From Bacilli bacterium (GTDB lineage: Bacteria; Bacillota_I; Bacilli_A; RFN20; CAG-826), in NCBI GenBank assembly GCA_022482735.1, contig JAKVOO010000001.1, forward strand, positions 1,399,004-1,463,003: 64,000 bases of DNA, written 5' to 3'. Of this stretch, positions 19,258 to 44,094 are shown piece after piece. The position numbers and the translations under genes are program-made. Each line of letters opens with the position of its first letter. Positions within the stretch are counted from its first letter, which is position 1. Below the pieces are notes generated by a model. The model saw only the letters and a program-made list of their open reading frames with translations. It was not told the origin of the DNA and searched no databases.

Positions 19258-20725
19258 ATGGCAGAAGTAATTCTTAAGGATGTTTGTAAGCGCTACGAGG
19301 GCAACCCCAAAAATTCTGTGACCGATTTCAATATCACAATTTCGGACAAAGAGTTTATCGTCTTCGTTGGCCCATCAGGTTGTGGAAAGTCTACTACCCT
19401 CCGGATGATTGCCGGTCTAGAAGATATCACAAGTGGCGAATTATATATTGATGGACGGCTCTGTAACGATGTTACACCGAAAGATCGGGGAATCGCGATG
19501 GTTTTCCAATCTTATGCCCTATATCCTCATATGACGGTTTACGATAATATGGCGTTTGGTTTAAAAATTCAACATTTACCAAAGGCAGAAATTGATAGCC
19601 GAGTTAAAGAAGCGGCGCGGATTCTTGAGATTACCGAATACCTTCAACGGAAACCAAAAGCTCTATCTGGTGGTCAAAGACAACGGGTGGCTTTAGGGAA
19701 GAGCGATTGTTCGTCATGCTAGTGTCGTTTTAATGGATGAACCATTATCCAACCTTGATGCTAAATTACGGGTGCAAATGCGTTCGGAAATCATTCGTCT
19801 ACACGAACAAATGAATGCAACAACAATCTATGTTACCCACGATCAAACGGAAGCTATGACAATGGCTACGCGGATCGTAGTTATGAAAGATGGCTACATC
19901 CAACAAATTGGTTCACCAATTGAGATTTACCATAAACCTCGTAATTTGTTTGTTGCCTCCTTTATTGGTAGCCCGGCAATGAATTTCTTTACTGGCATTG
20001 TCAAAGGGAGCAAGATTGAACTTGTTCGCCGGTATAAAGAAGATGTCGATGCTAAATTGATTAAATTTGTTAAGATTGATGGCAATACCATTTATCGCCC
20101 AATCGCCAAAATTAATGTCACTTTAACTGACGATGAGCATAATGTGGTTAAAGGAGCTGCGGATGCCGTAGCCTCATTACCAGCATCAGTTAAGGAAAGA
20201 TTGCCCGAAAAAGAAAAAGGTGCTGAAGGGGTGTGGACGGTTGAAGGCAAGGTTGCTTCCTTTATTAAGTATGAAGTAATCAGTGTCAAAAAGACTGATG
20301 CAAAATACATCAGTGTGATTGAAAATACGATCTTCGTTCCTTCTACCGATAACCGAATTGTGTTAGACGTTCCATCTCAATTCCTTGATGCGCTTAAACC
20401 TTATGAAGGCAATATGGTAATATTCGGTATTCGCCCGGAAGATGTGCATTATAAAGAAAGCCAAGTGGCGCTAGACTATCCATCAAGTAATTTGGAACTT
20501 GACGTAAGCGTCGCGGAATTACTTGGCCACGAATATATCCTTCATGGTGATTTTGCCGGTCAAAAATTAGTGGCTAAAATTCCCGTTGTAAGTGACAAGA
20601 CAATCCATATCGGAGACAAGATTGACTTAGCGCTTGATTTAGGGAAGGCTCATTTCTTTAAGATTGATGCCCCTGAAGAAGCCGAGTCTTTACCAGAATC
20701 AGAAAAAGGACTTTGCATTATTTAA
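19258..20725 (+). CDS. msmK: Sugar ABC transporter ATPase (MalK/MsmK-like) with an unusually long C-terminal regulatory domain. The reading frame is broken by a 1-nt insertion near 19699 (ORFs 19258-19722 and 19733-20725).
   Basis: Walker [11 protein letters not shown]-loop, signature [12 protein letters not shown], then the frame shifts. Reading +1 restores [20 protein letters not shown], the Walker B region. AAAGGAG RBS. Confidence 0.8.
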
Positions 20726-20759
20726 CTAAGCCACTTTTCAAAACTCGATTACTTAACAC

Positions 20760-20796
20760 AACGCCTAGCTTTCATTGGGAAGCAGGCGTTTTTTTG
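20760..20796 (+). terminator. Rho-independent terminator after the ATPase gene.
   Basis: aacgcct…aggcgtt hairpin plus TTTTTTT. Confidence 0.55.
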
Positions 20797-21066
20797 CATT
20801 ATTTTTGACCTTTTTATTTACTTGCCATTTTTGGCTACTTAACAAAATAAGTAAAAGTCGAAAATTTAGCACTGAAATTGAAAAAAACGACCTTTTTTCC
20901 ATTTGAAACCGCTATCAAAAAAACTTTACAAGATTAACCTATTAAGTATAATGTAATTGTCATTAAACAAAATTACCGCGAAAAGGACCATTCGTTTAGC
21001 GTTATTCGTAAGAAATTGTTTTTTACTAGCGGTCCTTCTCAAGCAAAAAAGGAAAGGAGGGTAATT

Positions 21067-22471
21067 ATGTTTAAAAAGTCAAAAGTTGCTGTTGTTGCTT
21101 TGACTTCGCTGCTATTAGCAGCATGTGGCGGAACTCAAGGATCGACCACTAGTTCGACTACTAGTGATTCGACGAGTATAGCTAATCCCGTTACAGTTAC
21201 GGTTACCGATGACACGGTTAGGTCCACAATCGATAGCTCATTCTTACCAGGCGTTACGGCGCAGAGAATTCGTCTAACAGTTTGGTCAGAAACGGAATCT
21301 CATCCGTTATTTAAAGAACTGATCAGTGAATTTGCTAAAAAATATTATTATGATGAATCTTCAAATGCAAAGTATGAATTTATTGTCACCATCGGTGATG
21401 AATTCTCCGATGCAGCTACCAAGATTACTCAAGATTTAGATGTTGCCCCTGATGTCTTTGGTTTCCCCGATGATCAACTCGGAAAATTGGTTGATGCGGG
21501 AGCCATCCAAGAGATAACCGGTTCTACCAAAACTTGGGTGAACGAAAACAATGTTCAAGCCTCGGTTTCTTCGGCTACATATAACAATAAACTATATGCA
21601 TTCCCACAAACGGCTGATAATGGTTACTTCTTGTACTATAATAAGAATTATCTAACGGCCGATGATGTTAAAACCGTTCGATGGAATTCTCGCCAAACTG
21701 GAATCCACCAATCAACAAATTGTCTTCCCATTTGAAGATGCTTGGTACATTCCATCTTTCTTCTTCAACCAAGGGAACATTTCTTATGATCCTGCTACCA
21801 AGACGATGACTTGTGATTTTGATAACACAGTCGGTCTTGAGGGTGCAAGAGGATTTGCCAACATTGTTCAAGAACACACGGCAGCCCTAAAGATTGCTGA
21901 CGTTAACTCTAACGATGCGCTATTTGCCACAAAAGATAGTGAAGGGCAACCAATTACTCCAGTCGCGGTTGCCGGTGTTACCGGAACTTGGAATGCTGGA
22001 CCATTGAGAGCCGCTATGGGCGATGGCTATGCGGCGACTAAGTTACCGACATTTACTCCTTACGATGAAAATGGCACCGCGCTTGCTCAACGTCAAATGG
22101 GATCATTTGCCGGTTCAAAATTAATTGGTACCAAGGCTCAAGACGATCCGGATAAGTTATACTTCTCAAGTTTACTTGCCAAGTATTTAACCAGTGAAGA
22201 TGCCCAAGTCCGTCGTTTCCAATCTCAAGGATTTGGACCATCCAACGTTACGGCGCAAAATAACCCGGCGGTTCTTGCAGATGTGGCCATCTCCGCGCTT
22301 AATGCTCAAGCTCCATATGCGGTTAGCCAATCGCGTTCAGTCGGCAATACCTTCTGGGATCCAACTGCGGCTTTTGGAAAATCGGTGGTTGCTAATGATT
22401 ATGGCGAAGGATTGACTCTAGCCGATGCTTTAGCGGCTTGGGTAGCCGCCCTCACAACCCCAGCGGCTTAA
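21067..22471 (+). CDS. Maltodextrin/oligosaccharide-binding lipoprotein of the ABC transporter (MalE-like SBP). The frame is broken by a 1-nt insertion in an A4 run at 21670-21673 (ORFs 21016-21735 and 21662-22471).
   Basis: Lipobox LLAACGG and a Ser/Thr linker. SBP family-1-like sequence that continues in the +1 frame (…DDVK|PFDGILAKLEST…). AAAGGAGGG RBS. Confidence 0.75.
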
Positions 22472-22492
22472 TTCGATTATTTTATGAAATGT

Positions 22493-22535
22493 ATTTAGGG
22501 CGAATGTCGGATTAACATTCGCCCTAAATTTCTAT
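22493..22535 (+). terminator. Very stable hairpin (14-15 bp perfect stem) between the SBP gene and the permease genes. It is a partial terminator/attenuator candidate.
   Basis: atttagggcgaatgt-cggattaa-cattcgccctaaat followed by a T-rich tract (ttctatt). Confidence 0.5.
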
Positions 22536-22552
22536 TATTAAGGGAGTTAATT

Positions 22553-24142
22553 ATGAAAGAGCAAAATGTAAAAAAACTTGGCTTCTTTCCTTGGATCGGT
22601 CAATCAATTCTTGATTCAATAATCAAATTTGGAAAATGGTTGCTTGATTTCCTTTGGACAATTATTAAAGCTTTCATCAACATCTTTGTCTTTGCGTATA
22701 AAATCATTGTCAAAGTAGGTAAGGCGATTGGACTATGGTTTTATAATTATGTAAATAGGTTTATTAAAGGAAACTTTAAAACCCGATTATCCTATCTCTT
22801 TGTCGGATTTGGACACATTACCAACGGCCAAGTTGTCAAAGGCGTGGTTCTACTAATTTTAGAGGCACTATTTATCGTATTTATGGTTCTTCCTCAAGGA
22901 GGGGCATACTGGTTAAGCCAAATAAACATATTTGGTCAGACTGGTGGCGATGGAATGCGCTGGATTGGCGACATTGGAACAACATATAATTATGTCGTGA
23001 TATCCAAATTCGGCGAGGTACTCATCACGAAGACCACCGGATTTGCTTCCAACTCTATGTTAGTAATGCTTTACTCGATAGCCACTCTATTAATTATTGC
23101 GGCCTTTTTTGCCCTTTATACTTATGGAATCAGTGCCGCCTATTCGCTTCAAAAGAAAAAAGAAGAGGGAGGGCACATTGCTTCCTTTAAGGAGGAGACG
23201 CACGCCTTATTAGATCGCCGCTTCCATGCTACAGTTTTAAGCCTCCCAACGTTAACGATATTGACGTTTACTATTCTTCCTTTGATATTTATGATCTTAC
23301 TGGCTTTCACGAATGCTAGTTTATTTTATTTCCCCCCATCAAGAAGATTTGCTTGGACCGGGCTTGATACTTTCGGTCAACTTTTCGGTGGAAATGCCGG
23401 CTATTCGTTTGCTATTGGCGAGATTTTTAAATGGACAATTTTGTGGGCGGTTCTGGCCACTTTCACCAACTATATTGGGGGAATGATTTTGGCACTACTC
23501 ATCAATAAAAAAGGAATTAAATTTAAAAAGATTTGGCGAACGTTATTTATTATATCAATCGCCATTCCGCAGTTTATCTCCCTTTCAATGATGGCAAAAT
23601 TTCTTGCTAAGGATGGGCCGATTTTTAATGCCCTAGATGCCTTGGGTTGGATGAAACCAATCAATATTTTTAATGATACGCGTTCCGCACGGACGAGCGT
23701 CGTTTTAATTAACATGTGGATTGGTATGCCTTATACAATGCTAATCACGTCAGGGATATTGATGAATATTCCGGCGGATTTATACGAATCCGCGCGTATT
23801 GATGGCGCGGGGCCAGTTACTCAATTCTTTAAGATTACGCTTCCTTATATGTTGTTTGTCACCGGTCCGTATTTAATTACTCAATTTATCGGTAATATAA
23901 ATAACTTTAATGTTATCTTCTTTTTGACTGGTGGTGGACCGGATATTACCACGCGCGGTATCACATATGGCCGAACAGATTTATTGATTACTTGGTTATA
24001 TGATTTAACCCTCGGCGGTTCTAAGCAAGAATACGCGATAGGTTCAGCCATCGGTATTATCGTTTTCTTAATTTCGGCTTTTATCTCGCTGGTGATGTAT
24101 AGCAAATCTTCAGCTAATGTTAACGAAGATGAGTTTCAATGA
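22553..24142 (+). CDS. ABC transporter permease, MalF-like (long N-terminal extension).
   Basis: Multiple TM helices and the EAA-type motif region ARIDGAGPVTQFFKITLP. AAGGGAG RBS. Confidence 0.8.
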   Translation: MKEQNVKKLGFFPWIGQSILDSIIKFGKWLLDFLWTIIKAFINIFVFAYKIIVKVGKAIGLWFYNYVNRFIKGNFKTRLSYLFVGFGHITNGQVVKGVVLLILEALFIVFMVLPQGGAYWLSQINIFGQTGGDGMRWIGDIGTTYNYVVISKFGEVLITKTTGFASNSMLVMLYSIATLLIIAAFFALYTYGISAAYSLQKKKEEGGHIASFKEETHALLDRRFHATVLSLPTLTILTFTILPLIFMILLAFTNASLFYFPPSRRFAWTGLDTFGQLFGGNAGYSFAIGEIFKWTILWAVLATFTNYIGGMILALLINKKGIKFKKIWRTLFIISIAIPQFISLSMMAKFLAKDGPIFNALDALGWMKPINIFNDTRSARTSVVLINMWIGMPYTMLITSGILMNIPADLYESARIDGAGPVTQFFKITLPYMLFVTGPYLITQFIGNINNFNVIFFLTGGGPDITTRGITYGRTDLLITWLYDLTLGGSKQEYAIGSAIGIIVFLISAFISLVMYSKSSANVNEDEFQ

Positions 24143-25177
24143 TTGAAAGGAAGAACAAGAACATGGAATTACAAAATACTAATGTAGTCGCTAAACACAA
24201 AAAACCACTTTTCTTCCAAAGCATGCATTTTCGGCGCGGACTCGGAAATACACTTATTTATATTTTGCTTGGAGTTATGGCGGTCGTATGGATGTTTCCG
24301 ATTATTTGGCTGATGGCTCAATCTTTTAGAGCCCCGGTTTATTCCTATACGATTAATCCTTCCGGACAGATGGTTATAACGGCGAGCAATCTTGGATTTA
24401 CTCCGATCAGACCAAATCATTGGTGGGGATATATATTCCCGGAAAAATGGAGTTTAGATAACTATTACCTGCTTTTTACCTGATACGGCTAACTATGATT
24501 ATCTTCACTACTTTCTCAATACTTTAGTTGTGGCCATCTTTACCTGTATTATTGCGACGATTATCGTCTTGCTTACTTCTTATGCTTTTTCACGGCTCCG
24601 GTTTAAAGCCCGCAAGCCGATGATGAAGTTATTGATGATTCTTGGAATGTTTCCTGGATTTATGTCGATGATTGCTATTTACTTTATTCTTAAAGGAATC
24701 GGTTTACTACCAGGAGGTGGAAGAACAAGCGTTCCAACAGCCAATTATTTGATTGCAATTGTTTTGGTTAACATTTCTGGCGCAGCGATGGGATATTATG
24801 TTTCCAAGGGATATTTTGACACTATTTCCCGTTCAATTGATGAAGCTGCAGAAATTGATGGGGCAAATAAAGCACAGATTTTTTGGAACATTACTCTTCC
24901 ACTTTCTAAACCGATTGTTATTTATCAAGCCTTAACGGCATTTATGGGGCCATGGGGCGATTATATTTTCAGTAGCACGATTACCCGGACAGAAAAACGG
25001 GCCTGGTTGGTTGCGCAGGGGCTATTTTCAATGATCGATGGATTAGGTGACTTAAATATATACTTCACTCGTTATGCGGCTGGATCAATTCTCCTATCGG
25101 TGCCGATTGTTATTCTCTTCATTTTCATGCAGAGATACTACGTCTCCGGTGTAACGGGTGGCGCAGTGAAAGGATAA
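24139..25177 (+). CDS. ABC transporter permease, MalG-like. The frame is broken by a 1-nt indel in a T5 run at 24473-24477 (ORFs 24139-24483 and 24530-25177).
   Basis: The N-terminal TM segment and the C-terminal EAA motif AAEIDGANKAQIFWNITLP lie in two frames. The start overlaps the malF-like stop codon. Confidence 0.75.
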
Positions 25178-25181
25178 TGCC

Positions 25182-26825: not shown

Positions 26826-26830
26826 TTTAT

Positions 26831-28303
26831 ATGCGTTTAGCAGGTATTCTTCAACCAGTTTCATCGCTACCCGCCAAGCACGGGATGGGAGATTTTGGGC
26901 CGACGGCCTATAAATTTGTCGATTTAATTAAAGCGAGTAAAATCAAGATTTGGCAGATTTTGCCCCTCAATCCTTTGGGATACGGCAATTCACCATATCA
27001 ACCATATTCGAGTAAAGCCTTAGATGAGGCTTATATTTCCCTAGAACTACTGCAGAAGGAGGGTCTATTGCCTAAGCGCGTACCCACCTTTAATCGCCGA
27101 AAAGAAGTTGTCGACTTTGATGGAGTGCATAAATTTAAAGATTTTTGGTTGAGGAAAGCCTACGCCAATTTTATCAAGCTTCATAAACGGGGATTATCCG
27201 CATTTAAAAAGAGCAATTCATGGGTTTACTACTATGCTGTATTTCGTCTTTTAAAGTCGCAAAATGAAGAAAAATTATGGACGGAATGGCGTCAAGAGGA
27301 CAAGAATTGGATTATCGATCATAAGAAGAATCTTGCCCCGTTTGAAGATGAAATCAACTATCTTATTTGGCTCCAATACATTGCTTGGAGACAGTGGAAT
27401 GGTTTACATTTGTACACTAATGCCCAAGGCATAAAAATAATGGGTGACATTCCAATGTACGTTGGAATAGATAGCGATGATGTTTGGACCAATCAAGAGG
27501 CGTTTCTTCTCGATAAAGATGGAAATCCATCGTTTATTGCCGGCGTTCCACCCGATTATTTTTCAAAGACCGGGCAAAGATGGGGTAATCCAATTTATAA
27601 CTGGGATTATTTGAAATCCCACGGATATTCTTTTTGGAATGAAAGACTAAGTTACAATTCGCAGTTATTCGATATTATTCGTATTGACCACTTTCGCGCC
27701 TTTGATACATATTGGAAAATCCCGGCATCGTGCCTGACAGCCGTAGAGGGAGAGTGGGTTTTGGGCCCAAGATATGATTTCTTTGACGCTTTGTTCAAAT
27801 TAATGCCGGACATTCAAATTGTGGCTGAAGATTTGGGGGATTTGCGACCGGAAGTATTGGAATTACGCGATCATTATCATTTTATGGGTATGAAGATTAT
27901 TGAGTTTTCTTTTAATCCATATGATTTGAATGAAACAAGAAAAAATGATCGTCCCCATTTAATTGTCTACACTGGTACGCACGACAACGAGACGATTTTA
28001 GGCTGGTGGATGAACCGTGAGCCAGAGTATCAAAATCGCACGCTCGGCTATTTTTATGATTTAGGATATCGGGAAAATTTGCCTTCAATCACAGATAAAT
28101 TTGTTGCTTTTACGCTTGATAATGTTGCCGACTGGGCTATTTTGCCAACGCAGGATATTCTTGGACTCGACAATTCGGCTCGCATAAATACTCCTGGAAC
28201 GATTGGCTCACCAAATTGGGAATGGAAGTTGGCGGACTATCGTCTTTTAGAAGAAAGATTAAAACTATTCAAGGTGCTTGTATCAAATAGCAATCGTGGA
28301 TGA
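26831..28303 (+). CDS. malQ: 4-alpha-glucanotransferase (amylomaltase, GH77).
   Basis: N-terminus GILQPVSSLP…GDFGP. RIDHFRAF and the GTHDNETILGW region. Confidence 0.85.
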   Translation: MRLAGILQPVSSLPAKHGMGDFGPTAYKFVDLIKASKIKIWQILPLNPLGYGNSPYQPYSSKALDEAYISLELLQKEGLLPKRVPTFNRRKEVVDFDGVHKFKDFWLRKAYANFIKLHKRGLSAFKKSNSWVYYYAVFRLLKSQNEEKLWTEWRQEDKNWIIDHKKNLAPFEDEINYLIWLQYIAWRQWNGLHLYTNAQGIKIMGDIPMYVGIDSDDVWTNQEAFLLDKDGNPSFIAGVPPDYFSKTGQRWGNPIYNWDYLKSHGYSFWNERLSYNSQLFDIIRIDHFRAFDTYWKIPASCLTAVEGEWVLGPRYDFFDALFKLMPDIQIVAEDLGDLRPEVLELRDHYHFMGMKIIEFSFNPYDLNETRKNDRPHLIVYTGTHDNETILGWWMNREPEYQNRTLGYFYDLGYRENLPSITDKFVAFTLDNVADWAILPTQDILGLDNSARINTPGTIGSPNWEWKLADYRLLEERLKLFKVLVSNSNRG

Positions 28304-28323
28304 TCTTTAAGGAGGAACACCAT

Positions 28324-31152
28324 ATGAAACTTTGGAAAAAGATTAAGACTGTAGGCGCTTTAATTGGCGCGGCTTTAATCTTAATTGTGGCGTCTAATTC
28401 GACTATTGTGTCTTCAAGATTGGAAGCCCCGACTAGAAGAAATGTCGCTTATCTAGAGCCGACAATCGTATTTCACTATCACCGGGCGGATAATGATTAT
28501 ACCAATTGGGATCTTTGGCTTTGGGAGTATGGCAAGGACGGGGTTGCGACCGCATTTACCGATGAGGATAGCTATGGTAAATATGTAGCTCTTCCCCTAT
28601 CTACTTGGTCAAATACGGAATCGGTCTATGTTATCGCTCGTAAAACGGATTGGTCGGCGCAAACTTCGGATTTGGAGGTTGTGTATAGCAATTTTACCTT
28701 ATCGACCGATAATGCCTATGATATATACATGGTTGACTTAGAGAACACCCTCTATGTTAGCGCCGAAGAAGCTTTAGCGGATAAAATTCTTAGTTCGCGC
28801 TTCGTTGAAGTAAATCAAGTCGAAGTAGTGACAAACTATTTCCCTTCCGCTTTTATCGTTAAGGAAAATGATAATCCCTTAACGAGTTCCAGCGGAACTC
28901 CCGTCTATAACGCAACTTCCTACTCGTACAAGACAAGCGTGACGGTTGGAGACAGTGGCTTTGCTATGGATTTTAACAATAACTATGCGGTTTTTGTTAC
29001 TTTCCACGACAGTGGAGAAACCAAATCAGCTCCCGTATCAATTTCGGGTCTATTTGATACTTCTTACTTTAAGGAAAATTCGACTTACAGTGGCAGCGAT
29101 CTAGGCGTAACTTATTCTTCAACATCATCAATATTTAAAGTATGGGCGCCGACAAGCAGCCAAGTTATATTAAGAATATACGAAAATGGAACCCCAACGT
29201 CAGTTGATGCCGTTTTAGGCGACAACAACTTTACCCCTTATTCAATGAGTAAGGGAAACTATGGAGTTTGGTCAGTCACGGTCAATGGCGATTTGAATGG
29301 AAAATATTACACTTTCTTTGTAACTAATGCGATGTTTCCTTCAGGCGTAGAAGCAGTTGATCCATATGCTAAAGCGGCGGGAGTGAACGGGGAAAGAGGA
29401 ATGATTTTAGATTTTTCCACCACTGACCCGACGGGCTGGGAAGATGTGAACTTACCAGACATTGAACCAACGCAAGCGGCGGTATATGAAATGCATGTTG
29501 CCGATTTAACAAGTGATTCAACCTGGAATGGTCATGAGAGTTCAAGAAAAAAGTATCTTGGCCTTATTGAAGAAGGAACAACCTATACGCAAGATGGAAT
29601 GACAGTAACCACGGGCTTCGACCATATTAAGGAACTAGGTGTTAATGTCGTGCAAATTCTTCCTTTCTTCGATCAGAGCAATGATGAAGTTAATGTTTCA
29701 TTTAACTGGGGATACAATCCCAAAAACTACGATGTCCTAGAAGGTGCCTATAGCAGTGATCCCTACGATGGTGCCGTTCGCGTTAATGAATTCAAGCAAG
29801 TTGTTCAAGCCTATTCACAAGCCGGTATTCGTATCGTAATGGATGTTGTTTATAACCATGTTGCTAGTGTCAGTTCATCATCATTTAACAAAATAGTTCC
29901 AGAGTATTATTTCCGTTATAAGGAAGATGGTTCTCTTTCTAATGGTTCAGGAGTGGGTAATGATACGGCTTCGGAACGCATTATGATGCAGCGCTTCATG
30001 GTCGACAGCACCGCTTGGTGGACGGAAGAATACAAAATTGGTGGCTTCCGATTTGATCTTATGGGACTCCATGATGTGGATACTATGAATGCGATTTCTG
30101 CGCGCGTCCACACAATTGATCATCATTCGCTGATTTATGGCGAACCTTGGAAACTATCAACCGTTACTGCGGTTAACACCACTCTAGCTACCTATGATAA
30201 TATTCCACAAATTAACAATGTCGGCGGATTTAACGATGCTTTCCGGGACGGAGTTAAAGGAAGCGTTTTTGATAAGACCGGTGTTGGATGGGTGCAAAAT
30301 GGCAACCCCAGTGCCACCCAAATAACAAATGTTAAGAATGGATTACTGGGGGTTGAAACAGGTGGAAGTGATGATCCATCGCAAGTGGTTAATTACGTTG
30401 ATTGCCATGACAATAACACATTATTTGATAAAATGTCGCTAACGACAGATTTAAATATTTATGATGAAAACACAATTTTGAAACGGGTAACGCAAGCAGC
30501 GGCTATGACTTTGACCGCTGAAGGCATCAGTTTCTTTCAAGGAGGGACGGAGTTTTTAAGGACAAAGCCAAAGGATGGGGGAAATTTTGATGATAACTCC
30601 TATCAATCCAGCTATGAAGTTAATGACTTTGACTGGGACCGAAAGATAACCTATCACCAGCAATACGAAATTTTTAGAGAATTAGTCGCCCTTAAGACCG
30701 GAAACAGTCTTTTCCAATATGGAACGAGAGAAGCCATTGATTCGCATGTCACCTACACGAGTGCAAGTGAACTAGGAATTGATGCTCCAATTATGAAACT
30801 ATCCTATGTTGATGATAATAATCAAATGGCAATTTATCATATTGGGACAACCACACGGGTTACGATAGACCTTACTGGCTATGAAGTGGTGGTTGATACG
30901 AGCGGAACTTTTGCTGTTGGAGAGCGTCTTGGCAGCGAGCGGTTGTTAGGAAATACCACTTTGATTTTGAAGCCAATCTCTGGTAGTTCAACATCAAGCG
31001 ATTCAACTAGCGGTGGCAGTTCATCCAACGGTGATGGTGATAACGGTGGGCTTTCCGCTTTAGACATCTCTTTAGCAATTGGTGGAGGATTGATTATTCT
31101 TGGCGGAGGGACGGCGTTGATACTTCTTCTTAAGAAAAAGAAAGAATTTTAA
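28324..31152 (+). CDS. pulA: Cell-surface type I pullulanase (GH13_14) with N-terminal CBM-like modules and a C-terminal TM anchor plus KKKK tail. No LPXTG motif.
   Basis: Signal peptide. YNHV, GFRFDLMG, YVDCHDN and GEPW regions. Ser-rich stalk, then LAIGGGLIILGGGTALILLLKKKKEF. AAGGAGG RBS at 28324. Confidence 0.85.
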   Translation: MKLWKKIKTVGALIGAALILIVASNSTIVSSRLEAPTRRNVAYLEPTIVFHYHRADNDYTNWDLWLWEYGKDGVATAFTDEDSYGKYVALPLSTWSNTESVYVIARKTDWSAQTSDLEVVYSNFTLSTDNAYDIYMVDLENTLYVSAEEALADKILSSRFVEVNQVEVVTNYFPSAFIVKENDNPLTSSSGTPVYNATSYSYKTSVTVGDSGFAMDFNNNYAVFVTFHDSGETKSAPVSISGLFDTSYFKENSTYSGSDLGVTYSSTSSIFKVWAPTSSQVILRIYENGTPTSVDAVLGDNNFTPYSMSKGNYGVWSVTVNGDLNGKYYTFFVTNAMFPSGVEAVDPYAKAAGVNGERGMILDFSTTDPTGWEDVNLPDIEPTQAAVYEMHVADLTSDSTWNGHESSRKKYLGLIEEGTTYTQDGMTVTTGFDHIKELGVNVVQILPFFDQSNDEVNVSFNWGYNPKNYDVLEGAYSSDPYDGAVRVNEFKQVVQAYSQAGIRIVMDVVYNHVASVSSSSFNKIVPEYYFRYKEDGSLSNGSGVGNDTASERIMMQRFMVDSTAWWTEEYKIGGFRFDLMGLHDVDTMNAISARVHTIDHHSLIYGEPWKLSTVTAVNTTLATYDNIPQINNVGGFNDAFRDGVKGSVFDKTGVGWVQNGNPSATQITNVKNGLLGVETGGSDDPSQVVNYVDCHDNNTLFDKMSLTTDLNIYDENTILKRVTQAAAMTLTAEGISFFQGGTEFLRTKPKDGGNFDDNSYQSSYEVNDFDWDRKITYHQQYEIFRELVALKTGNSLFQYGTREAIDSHVTYTSASELGIDAPIMKLSYVDDNNQMAIYHIGTTTRVTIDLTGYEVVVDTSGTFAVGERLGSERLLGNTTLILKPISGSSTSSDSTSGGSSSNGDGDNGGLSALDISLAIGGGLIILGGGTALILLLKKKKEF

Positions 31153-32850: not shown

Positions 32851-32877
32851 GCTCACCTTTGCGGGTGAGTTTTTCAT
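32851..32877 (+). terminator. Rho-independent terminator.
   Basis: ctcacc-tttgcg-ggtgag hairpin plus TTTTT. Confidence 0.5.
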
Positions 32878-32939
32878 TTTATTATTCTTTTAACTATGTT
32901 AAAATAATAATAATAAATATATCGACACTGGTACAAATT

Positions 32940-35767
32940 ATGAAAAAAAGAAACCCAATATATTTTTTAGGATTAATTACTATGCTTTTTGTTTCTTCAT
33001 GTGGCAAGAATGACAATTCGTCGACCCATAGTGACACTAGTGAATTAATCACCAGCGAAAACACATCCGATAGTTCTTCACTGAAAGACACATCAACAAC
33101 GACAAGTGAAACGCCGATTACGGGAACACCCGATTCGGTTTCATTATTTTATCATCGCGATGATAACGGCTATAGCGATTATGGAATTTGGTATTGGACG
33201 GATAAGGTCGCAGGAAATTTGCTTCCCTTTGAAACATATGACGATAATTTTGCGGTAATCAATATTCCGAGCACCATGTATGAGGGCGAGAACGGATTTT
33301 ATTTAATTGTTCGAAAAAAATCGACATGGGATGGTCAAAGCCCGGATTTTTATCTTGATTTTTCGCAGTATACTTTAAACTCGGATTTAACGATGGATGT
33401 CTACATTATTTCGACGGAAACCCTCGATGTTGAAGCATATTCAACACCTAAAGAGGCGCTGGGCAATCGAATTGTAAGCGCCACACTTACCTCTTTTTCC
33501 ACCATTAAAGCAACGGGAACGGCTCCCGCCAATCAATGGTCACTTTATTTGAATGATGAGAAAATTGACGAACAAGCTGGCTCGGATTCAAATGAGGTAA
33601 TTTTTAACTTATCAACCGATGTCGATCTTACGGATAAATATACAATAAAAGCTGTATTTCCAGATGCTATGGACAAAATTCGTTCCAAAGTAGTTTCGGC
33701 CGCTCCCCTATTTAACACCAGCGAATTTGATTCGCGTTACGCTTATGATGAGGATGATTTAGGAGCGGTTTATTCTTTAGAGTCAACGGTTTTTAAACTT
33801 TGGGCTCCGACTAGCTACGAAGTGACGCTCTTTCTCTATAAAGTTGGCTATACCTCTAAAGAAACGGGAAATATACTTCACGATGTCCCTCAAAAGCGAA
33901 TACCAATGGAGTACGCCGGTCAAGGCGTATATAGGGCTGAGGTTGCAGGTGATTTAGATCGGATGTATTACACTTATCTTGTTAATAATAGCAATGGAAA
34001 AAATGAAGTTATTGATCCATATGCGAAAAGTGCAGGACCTAATGGTCGTCGCGGGCAAATATTAGATTTTGCTAAATATGAGCCTGAAAATTTTGATAAT
34101 ACAACATTTTCCGATATTGCCTCCCCGAATGATTTAATCGTTTATGAAATGCATGTTCAAGATTTGACTAGCGATTCATCTTGGAATGGCGATGAGGCTA
34201 ATCGCGGCCATTTCCTTGGATTAATCGAATCAGGAACCACATATTCTATGGACCAAACTACGGTTACTACCGGGTTTGATCATATCAAGGAATTGGGTAT
34301 TAATGCCGTTCAAATCATGCCTTTCTACGACCAAAGTAATGATGAACTTAACCCCGCTTATAACTGGGGATATAATCCAGCAAATTATAATGTTCTTGAA
34401 GGTGGATATTCATCTAATCCCAAATTAGGCGAGGTCCGAGTTCAAGAATTTAAGCAAGTAGTTTCCGCTTATGCCAATGCGGGCATTCGAATTATCATGG
34501 ATTTGGTCTATAATCACGTGGCAAGTTTTTCTAGTTCTCAATTCCAAAAAATAGTTCCAGATTACTATTTCCGGCGAAACGCCGATGGAACTTTAAAAAA
34601 TGAATCGGGAGTTGGCAACGATATTAAAACGGAAGCCACAATGATGAGCAAGTACATTGTCGATTCAGTGAAGTTTTGGGCAAGCGAATACCACATTATG
34701 GGATTTCGATTTGATTTAATGAGTTTAATTGATGATGCGACTTTACAAAAAGTTGATGCTGCACTCAAAGCGATTAATCCCGATATAGTTGTTTGGGGTG
34801 AACCATGGAGTGGTGGTGGCTATATGGGACCAGCCAAAGTTTATTCAGCAGCCCTTAAAGATACGAGTGTTGCTGCGTTTAATGATGTTGGTCGGAACGC
34901 CATAAAAGGTGATAATAATCTAAATGGAAATGGTTCGCAATATGGATGGCTTCAAAAAGAGCCAGCCCATAATCAGAGCAATGTCAGCTATTTAAACCGC
35001 GTAAAGGGAATGTTAGCCGGGTATATGGGCGATTACTATGAGGCAACAAATTACACCGATCCAAGCAAAACGGTCAATTATGTTGATTGCCATGATAACT
35101 TTACAATTTTTGATCACTTGCTAGCAACAATGGGAAATAATCCCGATGTTTCGGCGCGTGCAAGTCTAGTTGCCAATTCCTTGGTTTTAACCTCATTTGG
35201 AACACTTTTTTTCAGGGCGGTGACGAAATAATGCGCTCAAAGGAATATGATCCGACTACAGAAATAGGAGCTATCTTTCTATCTACTCATGGCGGCGAGT
35301 CCGTTAAGATTGGTGACAAATACTATTCGGGAAACTCATATAATTTAGAAAGCACTGTCAATTCTTATAAGTGGGCAGATAAAATCAAATACGCGAGTTA
35401 TTTCGAAAGTTACAAGAATTTAATTGCGTTAAGAAGAAACAATCCCGCCTACAAAATGTATGATAGCGATGATATTTCTGCTCATTTTGGTTACTGGAAT
35501 AATGTTCAAGACTTATCCTATAGCGCAATTGCTAGTTACAACACTAAGGCGGCAGAATCATCTGGAGCGATATATTCATTTTATACCGGCATGCTCTACG
35601 GAAGTAGTACAGCAAACACAAATATTAATACCAAGCAAACAATTTCTTGGGGTGCGGGTGATTGTATTGTCCTATTTGATTCAACGGGTGAGCTCACGGG
35701 CCAAACGCTTTCTTCGTCTATTTCGCTTAGTTCTTTGCAAACCGTTATTGTTCAGAGGTTGTCCTAA
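32940..35767 (+). CDS. Second type I pullulanase (GH13), lipoprotein-anchored. The frame is broken in a T7 run at 35206-35212 (ORFs 32859-35231 and 35231-35767).
   Basis: Lipobox FVSSCGKN. YNHV, GFRFDLMS, YVDCHDN and GEPW. Continues in the +1 frame (…GTLFF|QGGDEIM…) and aligns with the pulA C-terminal region. Confidence 0.8.
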
Positions 35768-35769
35768 TC

Positions 35770-37392: not shown

Positions 37393-37513
37393 TTTTCCGG
37401 TTTCCCTAAGCAAATTTTGCTTTTTAGGTCCGGGGAGTTTGCGTTTTGAAGGCTTTTTGCCTTCCCCCACAATTATTTAGCGATTTTCGCATTTGGTATT
37501 AGGAGGAAAAAAT

Positions 37514-38224: not shown

Positions 38225-38262
38225 CGGGCAAAATAAAAATATATTTAAAGGGAGGTGATAAC

Positions 38263-38904
38263 ATGGATTTTTGGCAATGGCTTTTATTGGTCGTAGGAGT
38301 TATTTCGCTTGTTTTGCTTGCCATCTTTCTTTATCACCCTCTCCGCAAGTATTACTATCAAAAAAATACGGTCCGTATTTTCTATCGTACGGTAAGAAAA
38401 GTCACCCTTTACTTTGATTTTTATCTCATTAATCAAATGATTCTAAAGTTGGACGCTAATTCGACAGTGAATATTGATCACATCGTTTTTGGTGATAAAT
38501 ATATCTATGTAATTAAAGATAGATACTATTCTTTCTCACTCAAAGGTAGTGCCGCTGATCAAATGCTAATTAGTTACCAAAATAAAAAAGGCCACGCGAA
38601 AAAAGAAGTTCCGATTGAAAATCCCCTGATGTGGAATCGACTTCGGATTGATAAATTGGCTTTAATAACGGGCATTGACCATGATTTATTTATTTCGGTT
38701 GTTCTCGTCAATGACGATGTTAACGTGGACAACGTTACTACGACATCAAAAACGGAGTATATTATTAATCGTCATGATTTATATCGTTTAGTTCAGGCAA
38801 TTGAATCTCGTCCGGTTGAACCCTTAAATTCTGAACAATTGCATGCTGCGGTTCACGATATCGACCGCATCAATAAGCGGCATGACCGGGAGAAGAAGAA
38901 ATGA
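38263..38904 (+). CDS. Membrane-anchored NERD (nuclease-related domain)-like protein.
   Basis: N-terminal TM helix, then IDHIVFGDKYIYVIKDRYYSFSLKG. GGGAGGTG RBS. Confidence 0.45.
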   Translation: MDFWQWLLLVVGVISLVLLAIFLYHPLRKYYYQKNTVRIFYRTVRKVTLYFDFYLINQMILKLDANSTVNIDHIVFGDKYIYVIKDRYYSFSLKGSAADQMLISYQNKKGHAKKEVPIENPLMWNRLRIDKLALITGIDHDLFISVVLVNDDVNVDNVTTTSKTEYIINRHDLYRLVQAIESRPVEPLNSEQLHAAVHDIDRINKRHDREKKK

Positions 38905-39929
38905 AGTATAGTGAATTCGCTCAGTATTATAAAAAGAACATCAGTCGTCCAAATGGACGACATTTTGCTTTAAGTTTTGCTCTTTATTCGGTAATAGCAA
39001 TTTCATTTATAATTGATTATTTTGTCCCAGGAATTATTATTCTTTTATTTCCATTTATAATCGTGCCTTTTCTTTTCACAATTCATCTTGCCAACGTTCG
39101 GGCGATGATGGATAGCAACTTTAAAAGAGGACTTTATCGCAATTTTTTAGCAGGCTATCAAGAAAAAATTTTCCATACTTATCAGCCGATAGGAACACTA
39201 CTTCGGGGAATTTTGGTTTTCTTTGTCTCTCTTTTTGTCGAATCAATTATTCTTTCGCTTATCAGTCCCTTATTTCCGGCCGTCCAATCGTTTATGACTG
39301 ATCTTGAAAGCATAATTCAAACCAGCGGTTTTGCCAGTGCATCCGCCTATTTAAATACTAATTGGAATGTAATTCGCCCTTTGGCGATGGTTTTATATCT
39401 GATTGCTTTTCTTGTGACGACCATTTACATTATTATTCGAACGCTCATACGGGGATTTTTTATTAATTACGCATTGGGTTTGACGGTGCTATCATCTAGT
39501 CAAGTCAAAATGGAAATAGCTTCGCCCTATGCTACGTTTAAAAAAATTCATTATGCGATTTTGTTTCGTGAATTGTTACTCCCATTTTTAACATTTATTA
39601 TCTTTTTTGCGGGCGGAGCCCTTTTGTCTTATTTCCGTTTTCCGGATGATTTGAAGTTGGCCTTTACGTTAGGAATGATTTTTGGCTTGCTACCATCAGT
39701 ATTCTTTATTTATCGTCTCTACACGGTCAGCGATGTGCTATATGATATTTTCTTTCGCAATAATGCCAATTACTTTTTAAATGTTATTACCCGTGATGCC
39801 AACAGCCTTTTGTCGCGTCCGGACATTGATGGCGAAATGAAAAAAAGGATTGAAATCTATCTAATTACTTTAAAAACGCAAGTTGGATTATCCTTAAAAA
39901 AGGAAGATTCAAATACGTCTAAAGAATAA
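38901..39929 (+). CDS. Polytopic membrane protein of unknown function (about 8 TM helices), translationally coupled to the NERD-like gene.
   Basis: ATGA overlap with the upstream gene. Hydrophobicity pattern only. Confidence 0.45.
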   Translation: MKYSEFAQYYKKNISRPNGRHFALSFALYSVIAISFIIDYFVPGIIILLFPFIIVPFLFTIHLANVRAMMDSNFKRGLYRNFLAGYQEKIFHTYQPIGTLLRGILVFFVSLFVESIILSLISPLFPAVQSFMTDLESIIQTSGFASASAYLNTNWNVIRPLAMVLYLIAFLVTTIYIIIRTLIRGFFINYALGLTVLSSSQVKMEIASPYATFKKIHYAILFRELLLPFLTFIIFFAGGALLSYFRFPDDLKLAFTLGMIFGLLPSVFFIYRLYTVSDVLYDIFFRNNANYFLNVITRDANSLLSRPDIDGEMKKRIEIYLITLKTQVGLSLKKEDSNTSKE

Positions 39930-40213
39930 ATAATCAGTATATAAAACTATAGAAGAAATCATTAGCAACTAAACTGTCTTTCTCGACGACAGTAATTTTT
40001 AAAGTATAGCGACTACCGCTGATGGGAAAAGATGATAATTTGAAAATACGCTCGGTTATACCCGCTTCGTTTTCATTTTCATTTAATAAAATTGGCGTTT
40101 CTCCGTCCGCTATAAAAAGTTGGGTTTTCTCTACTATATATTTAGCATCACTAGCTAGAAAGTACGCATTGTCTTTCAGTAGGGAGAAAGAGCAATAGTA
40201 ATCAGTGGTTAAA

Positions 40214-41026
40214 TCAGAGGCAGGGGTTTATTTCTTCATTCGGCAAGTTTTCGTTTTGCAAAATAAAGAAAGATACGTTATTAATTAATGATGTCTCGGG
40301 CGCACTTATGGGGGCCTCATTGAAGTAATAGTAAAGAGTTCTAGCATCAATTTCTTCCGTTTCATTATCGCTGAAACTAAAGGCTAAAGAACGGATAGTG
40401 TTATCCACAACGCGAATACGAAAACTAGTTAAAGTACGATTGACGGTATCTATCGAGTAGAAAAAACGTTCGCTAACTGAGTCAAAGTAATCCGGCAATA
40501 AATTATAGTAGCCACTGGCGTTTTCATCATAAACAAACATCGCTTCATCCAAAGTGGAAATATTATAAACGCCGAAATGACTTAAGGTGGATTCCGTAAT
40601 CGGTAAATCGGATAATTCATGTCCGGTGGTTATTTGTTGCTGAAAAGAATAGCCTAAGCCAAAAGTGCCATTATTTTTTTGATTGCTGTAGTAGTAGTAA
40701 TCAAAACCAGTATCCTCATAAGCGTAATAAAATCGTTCCAAATATTCTACGTCGCTTAAGCCGATAAGTGGGTTATGGTAGATGTCCAAGCGAATGTCGC
40801 CTTTTTTGGTTATAAAAGCATCGGTCTCATGGGCTCCATAAGTAGCATCCTTGTCGTGTTTTTCATTGATGCGATAAAAATTAAAAAGCGCACTATCAAG
40901 AGCTTGATCAAGCATCTGTTCATCATTGGGGCCGGAACTGATCGGCTCAATAATTCCCTGGCATGCCGCTAGTAGAGTTATTGTAGTGAGTGACAAAACT
41001 AGGCTCTTAATTCTCTTACTTTTCAT
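40214..41026 (-). CDS. Lipoprotein of unknown function.
   Basis: Lipobox LLAACQG after MKSKRIKSLVL. The real start is the internal ATG of ORF 40214-41107. Confidence 0.5.
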   Translation of the reverse strand: MKSKRIKSLVLSLTTITLLAACQGIIEPISSGPNDEQMLDQALDSALFNFYRINEKHDKDATYGAHETDAFITKKGDIRLDIYHNPLIGLSDVEYLERFYYAYEDTGFDYYYYSNQKNNGTFGLGYSFQQQITTGHELSDLPITESTLSHFGVYNISTLDEAMFVYDENASGYYNLLPDYFDSVSERFFYSIDTVNRTLTSFRIRVVDNTIRSLAFSFSDNETEEIDARTLYYYFNEAPISAPETSLINNVSFFILQNENLPNEEINPCL

Positions 41027-41028
41027 TT

Positions 41029-41511
41029 TTATCCTAGTCTCCTCATTTGATTTATAGCAATACCGGATGAGAATAAAATACCGATAGATGAAAAAATAAT
41101 TGCACAAACACTGCCATACCCAAGGCGATAACTATCGTATAAATAAACCTTTTCGCCATCGATAACGCTATATACATAGGTGTTTCCCGAGGCAAATATA
41201 ACAATTGAGTAGGCAAAAGCAAAAACCAATCCGATAGCTAGAAGGGCTTTCCAAAATGTTTTCTTGTTCACGAGAACATAAAATAGAAAAATTACTTGGA
41301 CCACAACAAACGGAAGAATAAAGGCAGATATTATTACCCAATTGGCAGTTATATGTCCATTGTTGTTATAGATTTGGACAGCATTTATTCCAATTAAAGA
41401 CGATTGAGTCGTCGTCTCATATAAATAATCACCATACATAAAAAGCCCGATACCAATCGTTAATAGATAGGTTATAACAAGGAGAATGCGATCAAGAGAT
41501 ATTTTTTTCAT
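41029..41511 (-). CDS. Small polytopic membrane protein of unknown function, immediately upstream of and coupled to the lipoprotein gene.
   Basis: 4 predicted TM helices. GGAG RBS before MKKISLD. Confidence 0.45.
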   Translation of the reverse strand: MKKISLDRILLVITYLLTIGIGLFMYGDYLYETTTQSSLIGINAVQIYNNNGHITANWVIISAFILPFVVVQVIFLFYVLVNKKTFWKALLAIGLVFAFAYSIVIFASGNTYVYSVIDGEKVYLYDSYRLGYGSVCAIIFSSIGILFSSGIAINQMRRLG

Positions 41512-41764
41512 AACAAAACTCCAGTGCATACATTTTAGAAAAAAAAGTTTGTTTTATCAATTGCTAATCGGTTATAAAAGGAAAGATTATGTGTTTTTTT
41601 GATTCATGTGTATGTGTTTTGGCTAAAATGCCAGTTCTAAAAATAATTAAGTTAGTAAGAATAATTGTTAGTAGCGGTATATAGAAAAAATATTATTGAT
41701 TTATTGGGATCAAGAAGCAATGTTAGCCATGTGGCAACATTAGAGAATCTATAGATCTGATAAA

Positions 41765-42055
41765 ATGATAAAGAATTTCATCATTTCAAAGAGAAAGCCA
41801 AATCTATATTTTCACGGCTTTAATAATCTTTATATAAGAGCATGGTTAGTTAGGCAATTAAAACTGATGGAAGGGTACATTAATATGCTTCCAATTGCAG
41901 GTTTGTTTTTGAATTTTTGCGCCGAGCATGATCGGCATAAATATGAATTGATTAAGTCCAAATTTGAAGAAGCCAAAAAAAGTTCAAAGTTCAAAGGAAT
42001 TCAGCTGGAAAGGAAAACTGAAGAATATATGCAGGATTGTTATCATAAAAGATGA
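41765..42055 (+). CDS. Hypothetical small protein. Weak call.
   Basis: ORF only. No recognisable motif or RBS. Confidence 0.2.
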   Translation: MIKNFIISKRKPNLYFHGFNNLYIRAWLVRQLKLMEGYINMLPIAGLFLNFCAEHDRHKYELIKSKFEEAKKSSKFKGIQLERKTEEYMQDCYHKR

Positions 42056-42243
42056 AAACAAAGACAAGATAATAGATTAAGTAATAAGTAAATCAGTGTA
42101 GATATTTATCTTCGTATTTGATTGAGAAGATGACTGGCAGAAATTGAGCTTCAATATGTTTACTCATAAAAATAGAAAAAATCACCCAATTTTGAGTGAT
42201 TTTAAACTATTCTTGTTCGTTTTCAAATAATCAAATCTAGAAA

Positions 42244-42318
42244 CTGGAGCAGGTGACGGGAATCGAACCCGCGTATCTACCTTGGCAAGGTAGTGTTCTA
42301 CCATTGAACTACACCTGC
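42244..42318 (-). tRNA. tRNA-Gly (anticodon GCC), ending in CCA.
   Basis: Reverse complement reads tgcaggtgtagttcaatggtagaacactaccttGCCaaggtag…ttcgattcccgtcacctgctcca. Confidence 0.85.
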
Positions 42319-42431
42319 ATTGATTGCGTTTTTTATTATATGAGAGCGGAAGATATAATGCAAGAACTTTTCGCTTAATATAATTACTTTATTTCTTGGC
42401 TATGGTATTATTATTAGGATTTGGAGGCATT

Positions 42432-44094
42432 ATGGCAACGGCACACGAATTAGCAAATATTATTTTTCCAGACATAACAGATACGATTGACGATTTAGAA
42501 AAGCAATTTCCTCCCCGCAAGTTGAAAACAGGAGCTATGGTTACTAGATTTGCTCCTTCCCCAACTGGGATTTTTGCATACAGGATCACTTTTTACTTCA
42601 CTTATCGCCCGCAAGGTCGCATCCGATTCTCAAGGTGTGTTTTTTACGCGTCTCGAGGACACCGATAGTAAACGCGAAATTGTTGGCGCGGGCAATCTCT
42701 TGCTCAAAGAATTGAAAGCTTTCGGAATTGAACCGGATGAAGGTTATTTAGGCGATCAGCAATGTGGAGATTACGGACCTTATGTTCAAAGTCAACGGGC
42801 CAATATTTATAAGATTGTTATCAAAAGCATGATTGAAAGAGATTTGGCTTATCCTTGTTTTTGTACCCCGGAAGAGCTAAGCGAAATGCGTAACCGGCAA
42901 GAACAAAGCAAAGTTATACCTGGCTACTATGGTCCTTATGCTCATTGTCGTTTTATTCCGCAAGAAGAGGCGTTAGAGCGCATTAAGAACAATGAACCGT
43001 ATGTCATTCGTTTTAAGTCACCAGGTAACCATAATCATAAAATTAAGGTCATTGACCTGATTCGAGGAAAAATGGAATTAACTGAAAATGACCAGGATAT
43101 TATTATTATGAAAAGTGATGGACTTCCAACCTATCACTTTGCCCACATTGTGGATGATCATTTTATGCGGACAAATTGCGTAACGCGAGGTGAGGAATGG
43201 TTATCGTCACTTCCGATTCATATTCAATTATTTGAATCACTTGGTTGGGAAGCGCCAGGATATGCGCATCTGCCGGTTATTAACAAGTTGGATAATGGAA
43301 ACAAACGGAAGCTTAGTAAACGCAAAGATCCAGAAGCGGCAGTTAGCTTCTTTATTGAAAAAGGTTATCCTTTAGAAGCAGTAAACACCTACCTATTAAG
43401 CATTGCAAATAGCAATTTTGAAGAGTGGTGGGCTCAGAATAAGAGCCAAAGTTTAGACCAGTTTAAATTTAGTTTTTCCAAAATGTCATTAGATGGGGCA
43501 TTGTTTGACCTCGATAAAGTTAATTATTTTGCCAAGGAAATATTGGGACTCTTGGATGCGGAAACAATATCAAATCGGGCATTGATTTGGGCTAAATCTT
43601 ACGATGCGGATTTTGCTTCCCTTATTGAAAGCAACTTTGTGTATTTTGTCAGTATTATGGGTATTGAAAGAGGAATTGCTAAACCAAGAAAAGATTATTC
43701 AACCTTCAGCGACATTTATCCAGCGATTAAGTTTTTTTATCGCCCATTTTATATTGAACTAACAAATAGTGAGCTACCATTTAATCCTAATATTGAAAGT
43801 TTAGTTATTAAGGAATCCTTAAATGATGTTTTAAAGGCAACGGACTTTAACCTTGATGAGCACGATTGGTTTGAAAGCCTTAAGCAAATAGCCTCTCGCC
43901 ACCAATTTGCTCCAAGTGGAAAATTATATAAGGCCAATCCTGCCGACTATGTTGGCAATATTGGCGATTTTGCAGAAATTTTACGGGTAGCTTTGACTGG
44001 TTCAAGACAATCTCCGAACCTTTATTATATTATTCAGGTCTTAGGGCCGGAAGAATTTGCATTTCGTATTAAATACGTTATTGAAAAACTTTAA
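42432..44094 (+). CDS. gltX: Glutamyl-tRNA synthetase. The frame is broken by a 1-nt insertion at about 42570, inside the HIGH motif (ORFs 42396-42668 and 42550-44094).
   Basis: MVTRFAPSPTG then a frame switch into (F)LHTGSLFTSLIARK. KMSKR-like LSKRK. GGAGG RBS at 42432. Confidence 0.85.

Follow-up and report, generated by a model that had tools for sequence, protein, structure and literature searches.

The 64,000-nt stretch analyzed here (the window) belongs to a 1,481,977-bp contig that constitutes the single-contig metagenome-assembled genome of an uncultured Bacilli bacterium. A starch/maltodextrin locus in the window comprises genes encoding a MalK/UgpC-type sugar ABC transporter ATPase (19258..20725, forward strand; NCBIfam UgpC, 458 bits, and MalK, 405 bits), a sugar ABC transporter substrate-binding lipoprotein (21067..22471, forward strand; Pfam SBP_bac_8, matching the protein of the relatives), a MalG-like ABC permease (24139..25177, forward strand; NCBIfam MalG, 123 bits), and two paralogous type I pullulanases. 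The first pullulanase gene (28300-31152) is intact and lies 2 kb upstream of the second (32940..35767, forward strand; NCBIfam pulA_typeI, 523 bits). The window also holds the final 50 codons (2-157) of an 852-aa Endonuclease_1/Big_2 gene on the forward strand, a 363-aa lipoprotein gene with no assigned function (39934..41026, reverse strand), and gltX, encoding glutamate--tRNA ligase (42432..44094, forward strand).

A sequence-only reading of this DNA had proposed that five of these genes are each split by a single-base frameshift, and all five pairs of open reading frames (ORFs) were found on the forward strand: malK-like (19258-19722 and 19733-20725), binding protein (21016-21735 and 21662-22471), malG-like (24139-24483 and 24530-25177), second pullulanase (32859-35231 and 35231-35767), and gltX (42396-42668 and 42550-44094). 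The intact homologs in related assemblies comprise 488, 467, 337/345, 928/942, and 553/563 aa, respectively. In the relatives, the malK-like, binding-protein, malG-like, and gltX genes are always unbroken, and the pullulanase gene is broken in some (L016 and L073-L076). The intact 563-aa gltX product of L004 reaches the NCBIfam equivalog cut-off of TIGR00464 gltX_bact (294.8 bits; cut-off 289.95).

Comparison set

For comparison, 54 conspecific loci were taken from other assemblies, with ~99-100% identity to the window. Private insertions and deletions were sought in the 57,291 bp for which five or more relatives were available, a stretch with 779 single-nucleotide polymorphisms (SNPs) among the relatives (1.36%). 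Homopolymer lengths were compared at the 413 window runs of at least 5 nt covered by relatives, of which 40 are 7 nt long and 9 are at least 8 nt long.

Proteins of the source contig have been deposited (MCH3977287, 299-303, 308, 309, and 317; locus tags LKE36_069xx-070xx). Exact matches to the window's private MalF and Ldh proteins were found only on the 1,481,977-bp contig, and the same holds for the fragments of the malK-like, binding-protein, malG-like, and gltX products, with the one exception of the 330-aa C-terminal piece of the malK-like protein, which is recorded on a second contig as well. The 514-aa gltX fragment is deposited, for this contig only, as MCH3977317.1 ('glutamate--tRNA ligase family protein'); no deposited record of the N-terminal gltX fragment was found.

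Private single-base insertions

The 57,291 bp scanned contain exactly seven sites with a base in the window that is absent from all relatives, 8-11 of which cover each site. At all seven, any given relative has one of two single-base alleles, and in the window the two stand in tandem. A random insertion would show this pattern with a probability of 0.0069, which gives ~7e-16 for seven of seven.

The malK-like gene is split by AG at 19695-19696, where four loci read TTT[A]GG, six read TTT[G]GG, and none has both; the window reads TTT[AG]GG (TTTAGGG), one base more than 10/10 relatives. The SNP is a synonymous change between the leucine codons TTA and TTG, and both repairs give the same 488-aa protein. 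The extra base, which had been taken for an A at about 19699, is hence either the A or the G of 19695/19696. In the binding-protein gene, the break had been placed in an A4 run, the length of which is constant across the relatives; the extra base is the C or G at 21675/21676, with AAAAC[C]TT in eight loci, AAAAC[G]TT in two, and AAAAC[CG]TT in the window, and either repair yields the same 467 aa. The malG-like gene had been read as lacking a T in a T5 run. This run is unchanged, and the window is one base too long, by the C or T at 24480/24481 (TTTAC[C]GA in four loci, TTTAC[T]GA in seven, TTTAC[CT]GA in the window); 11/11 relatives are one base shorter, and both repairs give the same 345 aa.

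For gltX, the reading was confirmed: the additional base, G or A, lies at 42569/42570, inside the PTG|FLHTGS stretch of the HIGH region. At least four loci carry CTGG[A]TTT and two carry CTGG[G]TTT, 8/8 relatives being one base shorter than the window's CTGG[GA]TTT, which stands in the sequence CTGGGATTT; the same 553-aa protein results from either repair. Of the five base-level descriptions in that reading, three or four were wrong, and the one for gltX was right.

Three further private 1-nt insertions, absent from that reading, are located at 94/95, 40222/40223, and 41995/41996. The first, a tandem CT on the forward strand (94..95), lies near the 3' end of the Endonuclease_1/Big_2 gene (TTGG[C]TTTG in seven loci, TTGG[T]TTTG in two, TTGG[CT]TTTG in the window), and removal of either base produces the same open C-terminus. 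The second, AG at 40222-40223, truncates the 363-aa lipoprotein gene; relatives read GGC[A]GGG or GGC[G]GGG and the window GGC[AG]GGG, 11/11 relatives are one base shorter, and the same 363 aa are obtained from either repair. The third, AG at 41995..41996, falls in a poorly conserved small ORF (window ORF 41765-42055) or intergenic stretch, with TTCAA[A]GAA in eight loci, TTCAA[G]GAA in one, and TTCAA[AG]GAA in the window (9/9 relatives one base shorter).

At the six coding sites, the SNP is synonymous in 6/6 cases, and the ORF regains the full length seen in the relatives whichever of the two bases is deleted, the paired repairs giving identical proteins (488, 467, 345, 363, and 553 aa, and the open C-terminus of the 852-aa gene). 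Each insertion adjoins a short homopolymer (2-4 nt), and at 7/7 sites one of the alleles extends the adjoining run, as with AGG and GGG written AGGG; 75% of all SNPs do so, and this property is not in itself significant (p = 0.135).

Deletion in the second pullulanase gene

The break in the second pullulanase gene is a 1-nt deletion (CC -> C) at 35205. It had been assigned to the T7 run at 35206-35212, which is unchanged; the C just 5' of this run is lost, the relatives reading AACACCTTTTTTT and the window AACACTTTTTTT. The AACACC-T7 form occurs in 17 loci and AACAC-T7 in the window, L016, L073, L074, L075, and L076, and the gene is in a single frame in 17/21 covering loci. The deletion allele is truncated at residue 763 of 942, and an added C restores 942 aa.

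The carriers are five contigs from four datasets, namely L016 and L076 (JGI 3300045591), L073 (SRR35197850), L075 (SRR35197851), and L074 (SRR16377041), some of which may share the study system of the source genome and thus represent independent assemblies, perhaps not independent populations. In L073 and L075, the deletion is linked to the otherwise private SNPs of the window, 34464T, 34503T, 35695C, and 35823C. L074 and L076 span two of these four positions and have the window's base at both (35695C and 35823C); L016 has the deletion but lacks 34464T and 34503T. Identity to the window is 100% for L075 (2.5 kb) and 99.89% for L073 (7.2 kb, without gaps). L074, which shares the window's pullulanase allele, lacks those private insertions that it covers, including the one in the lipoprotein gene (40222-40223).

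The pullulanase break is most likely a real pseudogene allele, belonging to a strain lineage seen repeatedly in independent datasets, as judged from its distribution and linkage, and its truncation is probably tolerated because an intact paralog lies upstream. It is improbable that the deletion is a recurrent context-specific error made independently at CC-T7 by several assemblies. The site does adjoin a T7 run, and L016 ends 126 nt beyond the deletion, so that in this contig it lies near an end. Against such an error stand the five contigs from four datasets, the extension of L073, L074, and L075 well beyond the site in both directions, the co-occurrence of the deletion with the window's otherwise private SNPs (all four in L073 and L075, the two covered in L074 and L076), and the intact CC in 17 other loci from similar data. 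Moreover, L016 and L076 overlap by 127 nt, as expected from a de Bruijn graph with k=127, which points to a read-supported allele branch in a short-read graph.

Origin of the insertions

The seven private insertions are very probably artefacts of a merged-haplotype consensus into which both SNP alleles were written, with the pullulanase deletion as a genuine allele, because each insertion sits on a strain-segregating SNP, the two alleles of which adjoin in the window. At a SNP that separates co-occurring strains, the consensus would keep the base of one allele and add that of the other, and two alternative bases would thereby become two consecutive ones and shift the frame. This could happen if, when the consensus was derived from mixed reads, the presence of a base and the length of a run (or insertion/deletion) were called separately from each other. 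From these patterns we infer that the source sample held a strain mixture, and likewise the sequencing technology and the assembly or polishing software. The window mostly follows the L004/L015 haplotype, with L001/L011 alleles interspersed, and the haplotypes switch A-B-A-B within 18 bp at 19720-19738. This mixed pattern is consistent with a strain mixture; part of the mosaic could have arisen by real recombination and not by chimerism of the consensus. In the organism itself, gltX and the malK-like, binding-protein, and malG-like genes are almost certainly intact, as the lipoprotein gene should also be.

The preference of the sequence-only reading for assembly error over decay is therefore upheld for the malK-like, binding-protein, malG-like, and gltX genes and fails for the pullulanase gene, the deletion of which recurs in other datasets. 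The type of error that it proposed, systematic homopolymer-type indels, does not fit. It is very unlikely that the breaks stem from generic homopolymer-length errors spread over the assembly, such as nanopore, PacBio CLR, 454, or Ion Torrent sequencing produces, even though every insertion touches a run of 2-4 identical bases, a single 1.48-Mb metagenome contig suggests long reads, and a private CC -> CCC change occurs in L004, the sister contig of 1.478 Mb, at window position 40653. True homopolymer error climbs steeply with run length. None of the 413 runs of at least 5 nt is discordant in length with all relatives, so that the placing of three of the five breaks in homopolymers finds no support, and the comparison of homopolymer lengths with close relatives that had been suggested showed the A4, T5, and T7 runs to be the same in all. 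Such error also does not predict that 7/7 insertions fall on SNPs and reproduce the second allele.

As regards translation of the broken genes, the pullulanase deletion allele contains a T TTT TTC heptamer in phase (35207-35213), where a ribosome slipping by -1 would make 942 aa with Pro replaced by Leu at one residue. The 87 nt downstream of the heptamer fold less well than shuffled sequences (z = +1.41) and gave no sign of a stimulatory structure, and a conserved need for frameshifting is absent, gltX being in one frame in 8/8 relatives and pullulanase in 17/21 loci. We regard it as highly doubtful that the deletion allele still makes the full-length enzyme through -1 ribosomal slippage or transcriptional slippage at T7; if it did, the recurring lineage would keep its second pullulanase at a low, slippage-dependent level.

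Least credible is the view that all breaks are real, with the maltodextrin pathway being lost or phase-varied and gltX rescued by a second copy or programmed frameshifting: four breaks do cluster in a single starch/maltodextrin locus and the pullulanase break is genuine and recurrent, but the fragments occur on one contig only (save the malK-like piece), all relatives, including L074, lack the private insertions they cover, repeat tracts are constant at all break sites, and mutation would not copy the other allele of a population SNP seven times. Genuine inactivation thus applies to one of the four genes of the pathway, as a plain pseudogene allele. Programmed frameshifting in gltX is not called for, since the frameshift occurs in no relative. 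Simple-sequence-repeat phase variation was rejected, since tract lengths are constant at the four artefact sites and, in the pullulanase gene, T7 is constant and the CC -> C change is linked to SNPs.

Implications and comparison with known systems

The biology that follows is the loss of one of two pullulanases in one strain lineage, and otherwise little. The public genome record, however, lists the broken genes as separate proteins, such as the 514-aa gltX fragment. With such errors spaced about 8 kb apart, the 1.48-Mb genome could contain roughly 180 affected genes, and errors at such a density would distort completeness estimates, pseudogene counts, and metabolic predictions. The tandem-allele signature is simple and machine-checkable, separates artefacts from real frameshifts, and would allow repair without reads.

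Early haploid assemblies made with FALCON contained indels at nucleotides that differed between merged haplotypes; these indels broke ORFs and vanished once the haplotypes were kept apart (Korlach et al., 2017, Gigascience, PMC5632298). The present case resembles that artefact in that 7/7 private insertions lie on SNPs and hold both alleles. It differs in that a bacterial strain mixture in a metagenome, rather than two haplotypes of a diploid, would have been merged, and the tandem-allele form presented here has no base-level description in PMC5632298. Homopolymer indels in metagenome-assembled genomes built from long reads also split genes (Sereika et al., 2022, PMC9262707; proovframe preprint, 10.1101/2021.08.23.457338), and the likeness extends to single-base splits that are recognized by protein length relative to relatives. 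In contrast to those errors, which grow with run length and are independent of strain variation, the insertions described here are tied to SNPs, and 0/413 long runs are affected. The pullulanase allele, a 1-nt deletion with linked SNPs in one of two paralogous type I pullulanase genes, resembles an ordinary strain-specific pseudogene. The finding is thus an ordinary one, combining an already known kind of artefact, the merged-haplotype consensus, with one common pseudogene.

Locus content and comparison loci

The window (G+C about 38%) contains a starch and maltodextrin locus at 16.8-36 kb, comprising by annotation a GH13 amylase, an HTH regulator, a second amylase, a GH77 4-alpha-glucanotransferase, a MalK/UgpC-type ATPase, a substrate-binding lipoprotein, MalF-like and MalG-like permeases, and two type I pullulanases with a cell-surface protein between them; gltX lies among housekeeping genes beyond it. 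For comparison, exact-protein look-ups supplied 54 loci of the same species, taken from further metagenome assemblies at JGI, Logan, and ENA; their identity to the window is approximately 99-100%, and together they span almost its whole length (57,291 bp at least 5-fold). Across these relatives, the intact malK-like, binding-protein, malG-like, second pullulanase, and gltX genes encode 488, 467, 337/345, 928/942, and 553/563 amino acids, respectively, and of these five only the pullulanase gene is broken in some of them. The species-representative genome collection held no close genome (best gltX match 58% identical, from a Bacillota genome), and a metagenome contig scan for the pullulanase site, allowing a C/T tract of any length, returned one contig, already in the locus set.

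Exact look-ups in the gene-position index gave no match for the window MalF, the malK N-terminal fragment, or the 763-aa pullulanase fragment, and the protein-cluster look-up matched the window MalF, the malK fragment, and the 178-aa pullulanase fragment. In the cluster look-ups, the private proteins and gene fragments of the window have exact matches on one contig of 1,481,977 bp, whose organism is named 'MAG: Bacilli bacterium' (MCH3977287, 299-303, 308, 309, 317; locus tags LKE36_069xx-070xx), from which the 763-aa fragment was also deposited. The window therefore belongs to a metagenome-assembled genome in a single contig, in whose record the broken genes stand as separate proteins; counts of NCBI protein accession numbers proved unreliable for assigning pseudogene status, and the exact look-ups settled the question.

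An IS30-family transposase element at 50241-51724 (ORF 50462-51625, minus strand; NF033563, 80.1 bits) sits in the terminator hairpin 3' of the nrdD-nrdG pair, with AAAGAGG(T/G)TTAATC repeated at its flanks, and is missing from all ten relatives covering the site. Directly after tRNA-Arg(ccg) (6708-6784), several relatives (L078, L079, L080, L085) carry a tyrosine integrase and phage-like gene island, which the window (6785-6830), L077, and L083 lack. The stretch at 11039-11864, 3' of tRNA-Gly(ccc) (10953-11026), is variable: most relatives fail to align there and have other small genes, and only L077 aligns over most of it, with several indels.

Private insertions carry both alleles of strain-level substitutions

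A list of all indels between the window and every relative gave seven places, and no others, where the window exceeds each covering relative by 1 nt. At each of these places the relatives form two groups distinguished by a single-base substitution, and the window has both bases consecutively: CT at 94/95 (TTGG[C]TTT or TTGG[T]TTT in relatives; 3' end of an 852-aa Endonuclease_1/Big_2 gene), AG at 19695/6 (TTT[A]GG or TTT[G]GG; malK-like), CG at 21675/6 (AAAAC[C]TT or AAAAC[G]TT; binding-protein), CT at 24480/1 (TTTAC[C]GA or TTTAC[T]GA; malG-like), AG at 40222/3 (GGC[A]GGG or GGC[G]GGG; a minus-strand gene for a 363-aa lipoprotein, truncated in the window), AG at 41995/6 (TCAA[A]GAA or TCAA[G]GAA; a small ORF or intergenic stretch), and GA at 42569/70 (CTGG[G]TTT or CTGG[A]TTT; gltX). 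With SNPs at 1.36% of positions among the relatives, random insertion of a random base produces this tandem-allele pattern with a probability of 0.0069, so that its occurrence at all seven sites has a chance of about 7e-16. The SNP is synonymous at all six coding sites, and removal of either base restores the same full-length protein, of the length found in relatives. The malK-like, binding-protein, malG-like, and gltX breaks are very probably artefacts of the merged-haplotype kind. The five breaks listed in the sequence-only reading are indeed present in the sequence, but three or four of them had been assigned a wrong position or direction, and three more, at 94/95, 40222/3, and 41995/6, had been missed.

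In gltX, the tandem G/A falls at the synonymous third position of a Gly codon (PTG|FLHTGS), and neither a second gene copy nor recoding need be invoked. The gene of an intact relative scores 294.8 bits against the NCBIfam equivalog cut-off of 289.95 for bacterial glutamate--tRNA ligase. The enzyme encoded in the 42432-44197 region is long (553 aa), has FLHTGS in place of the usual HIGH, and clears the gltX_bact cut-off narrowly; tRNA-Glu(ctc) lies directly 3' of the gene (44121-44197). An Rfam scan of the window and of L004, a sister single-contig genome of 1,478,372 bp (JGI 3300051653), returned tRNAs only, with neither a leader nor a frameshift element near gltX.

The pullulanase deletion is probably a strain allele

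The second pullulanase differs in kind: at 35205 the window is 1 nt shorter (AACAC-T7 versus AACACC-T7 in relatives), and no SNP occurs at the site. The same deletion is found in L016 and L076 (JGI 3300045591), L073 (SRR35197850), L075 (SRR35197851), and L074 (SRR16377041). Over 2.5 kb L075 matches the window at every base, and a gap-free comparison of L073 shows 8 differences in 7,244 positions; both have the otherwise window-private bases 34464T, 34503T, 35695C, and 35823C. L016 stops 126 nt past the deletion and has an overlap of exactly 127 nt with L076, as would be expected where a k=127 de Bruijn graph forks into two alleles that both have read support. L074 carries the deletion and lacks the window's insertion at 40223, which tells the real change apart from the artefactual one. 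We take the deletion to be a genuine allele, carried by a strain lineage, in which the second pullulanase is cut short at residue 763 of 942; the paralogue at 28300-31152 is intact.

Ribosomal slippage could in principle rescue the deletion allele, in which T TTT TTC is in phase; slipping by -1 at this heptamer, translation would yield a computed product of 942 aa that differs by a single Pro to Leu change, and the product of the deletion lineage would then span SFGTLFFQGGDEIMR. A heptamer suited to programmed -1 frameshifting is present; the following 87 nt fold worse than shuffled sequence (z = +1.41), with no apparent downstream structure. The gene is in a single frame in most relatives, and slippage rescue is unlikely.

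Origin of the insertions

Systematic homopolymer miscalling, to which the breaks had been attributed, is not the cause, because the A4 (21670), T5 (24473), and T7 (35206) runs have identical lengths in all relatives and 0 of 413 runs of at least 5 nt in the covered part differ in length from all relatives. The earlier suspicion of assembly error holds for four breaks, very probably as merged haplotypes, and fails for the pullulanase. At all seven insertion sites one SNP allele extends an adjacent short run, and the window has the longer run plus the base of the other allele, which fits a consensus step that judges run length and base presence separately; we discarded run extension as a special sign, since it is true of 75% of all SNPs and alone is no evidence.

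Between 17 and 44 kb, the window lies mostly on the haplotype of L004 and L015, with alleles of L001 and L011 scattered in and a switch of pattern within 18 bp at 19720-19738; at all seven insertion sites it has the L004/L015/L077 allele plus one more. The consensus was probably drawn from a read pile of at least two co-occurring strains, with a substitution rendered as an insertion and a deletion of which the insertion alone was accepted.

Other irregularities were observed. Many window-private substitutions lie at 10850-16690 and 43850-62250. A count that preceded the final additions to the locus set gave 93, roughly half of which fall between 10.8 and 16.7 kb; few lie at 17-42 kb, where relatives are more numerous. 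Either genuine strain variation or additional consensus errors may account for them. At 41721/41722, in the intergenic DNA 5' of tRNA-Gly(gcc) and gltX, all covering relatives are about 137 bp longer (e.g., L001 15980-16116); the window may have undergone a genuine deletion here or may contain another assembly fault. L004 itself has a private extra C (CC to CCC, window-equivalent 40653) by which the 363-aa lipoprotein gene, also broken in the window, falls into pieces of 205 and 136 aa; no SNP lies at that site, so this is a different type of error or mutation.

The window holds no new biological feature, and a rate of approximately one error per 8 kb suggests that many more genes of the deposited genome are affected. 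Indel errors of the merged-haplotype kind have been documented in diploid long-read assemblies (Korlach et al. 2017, PMC5632298).
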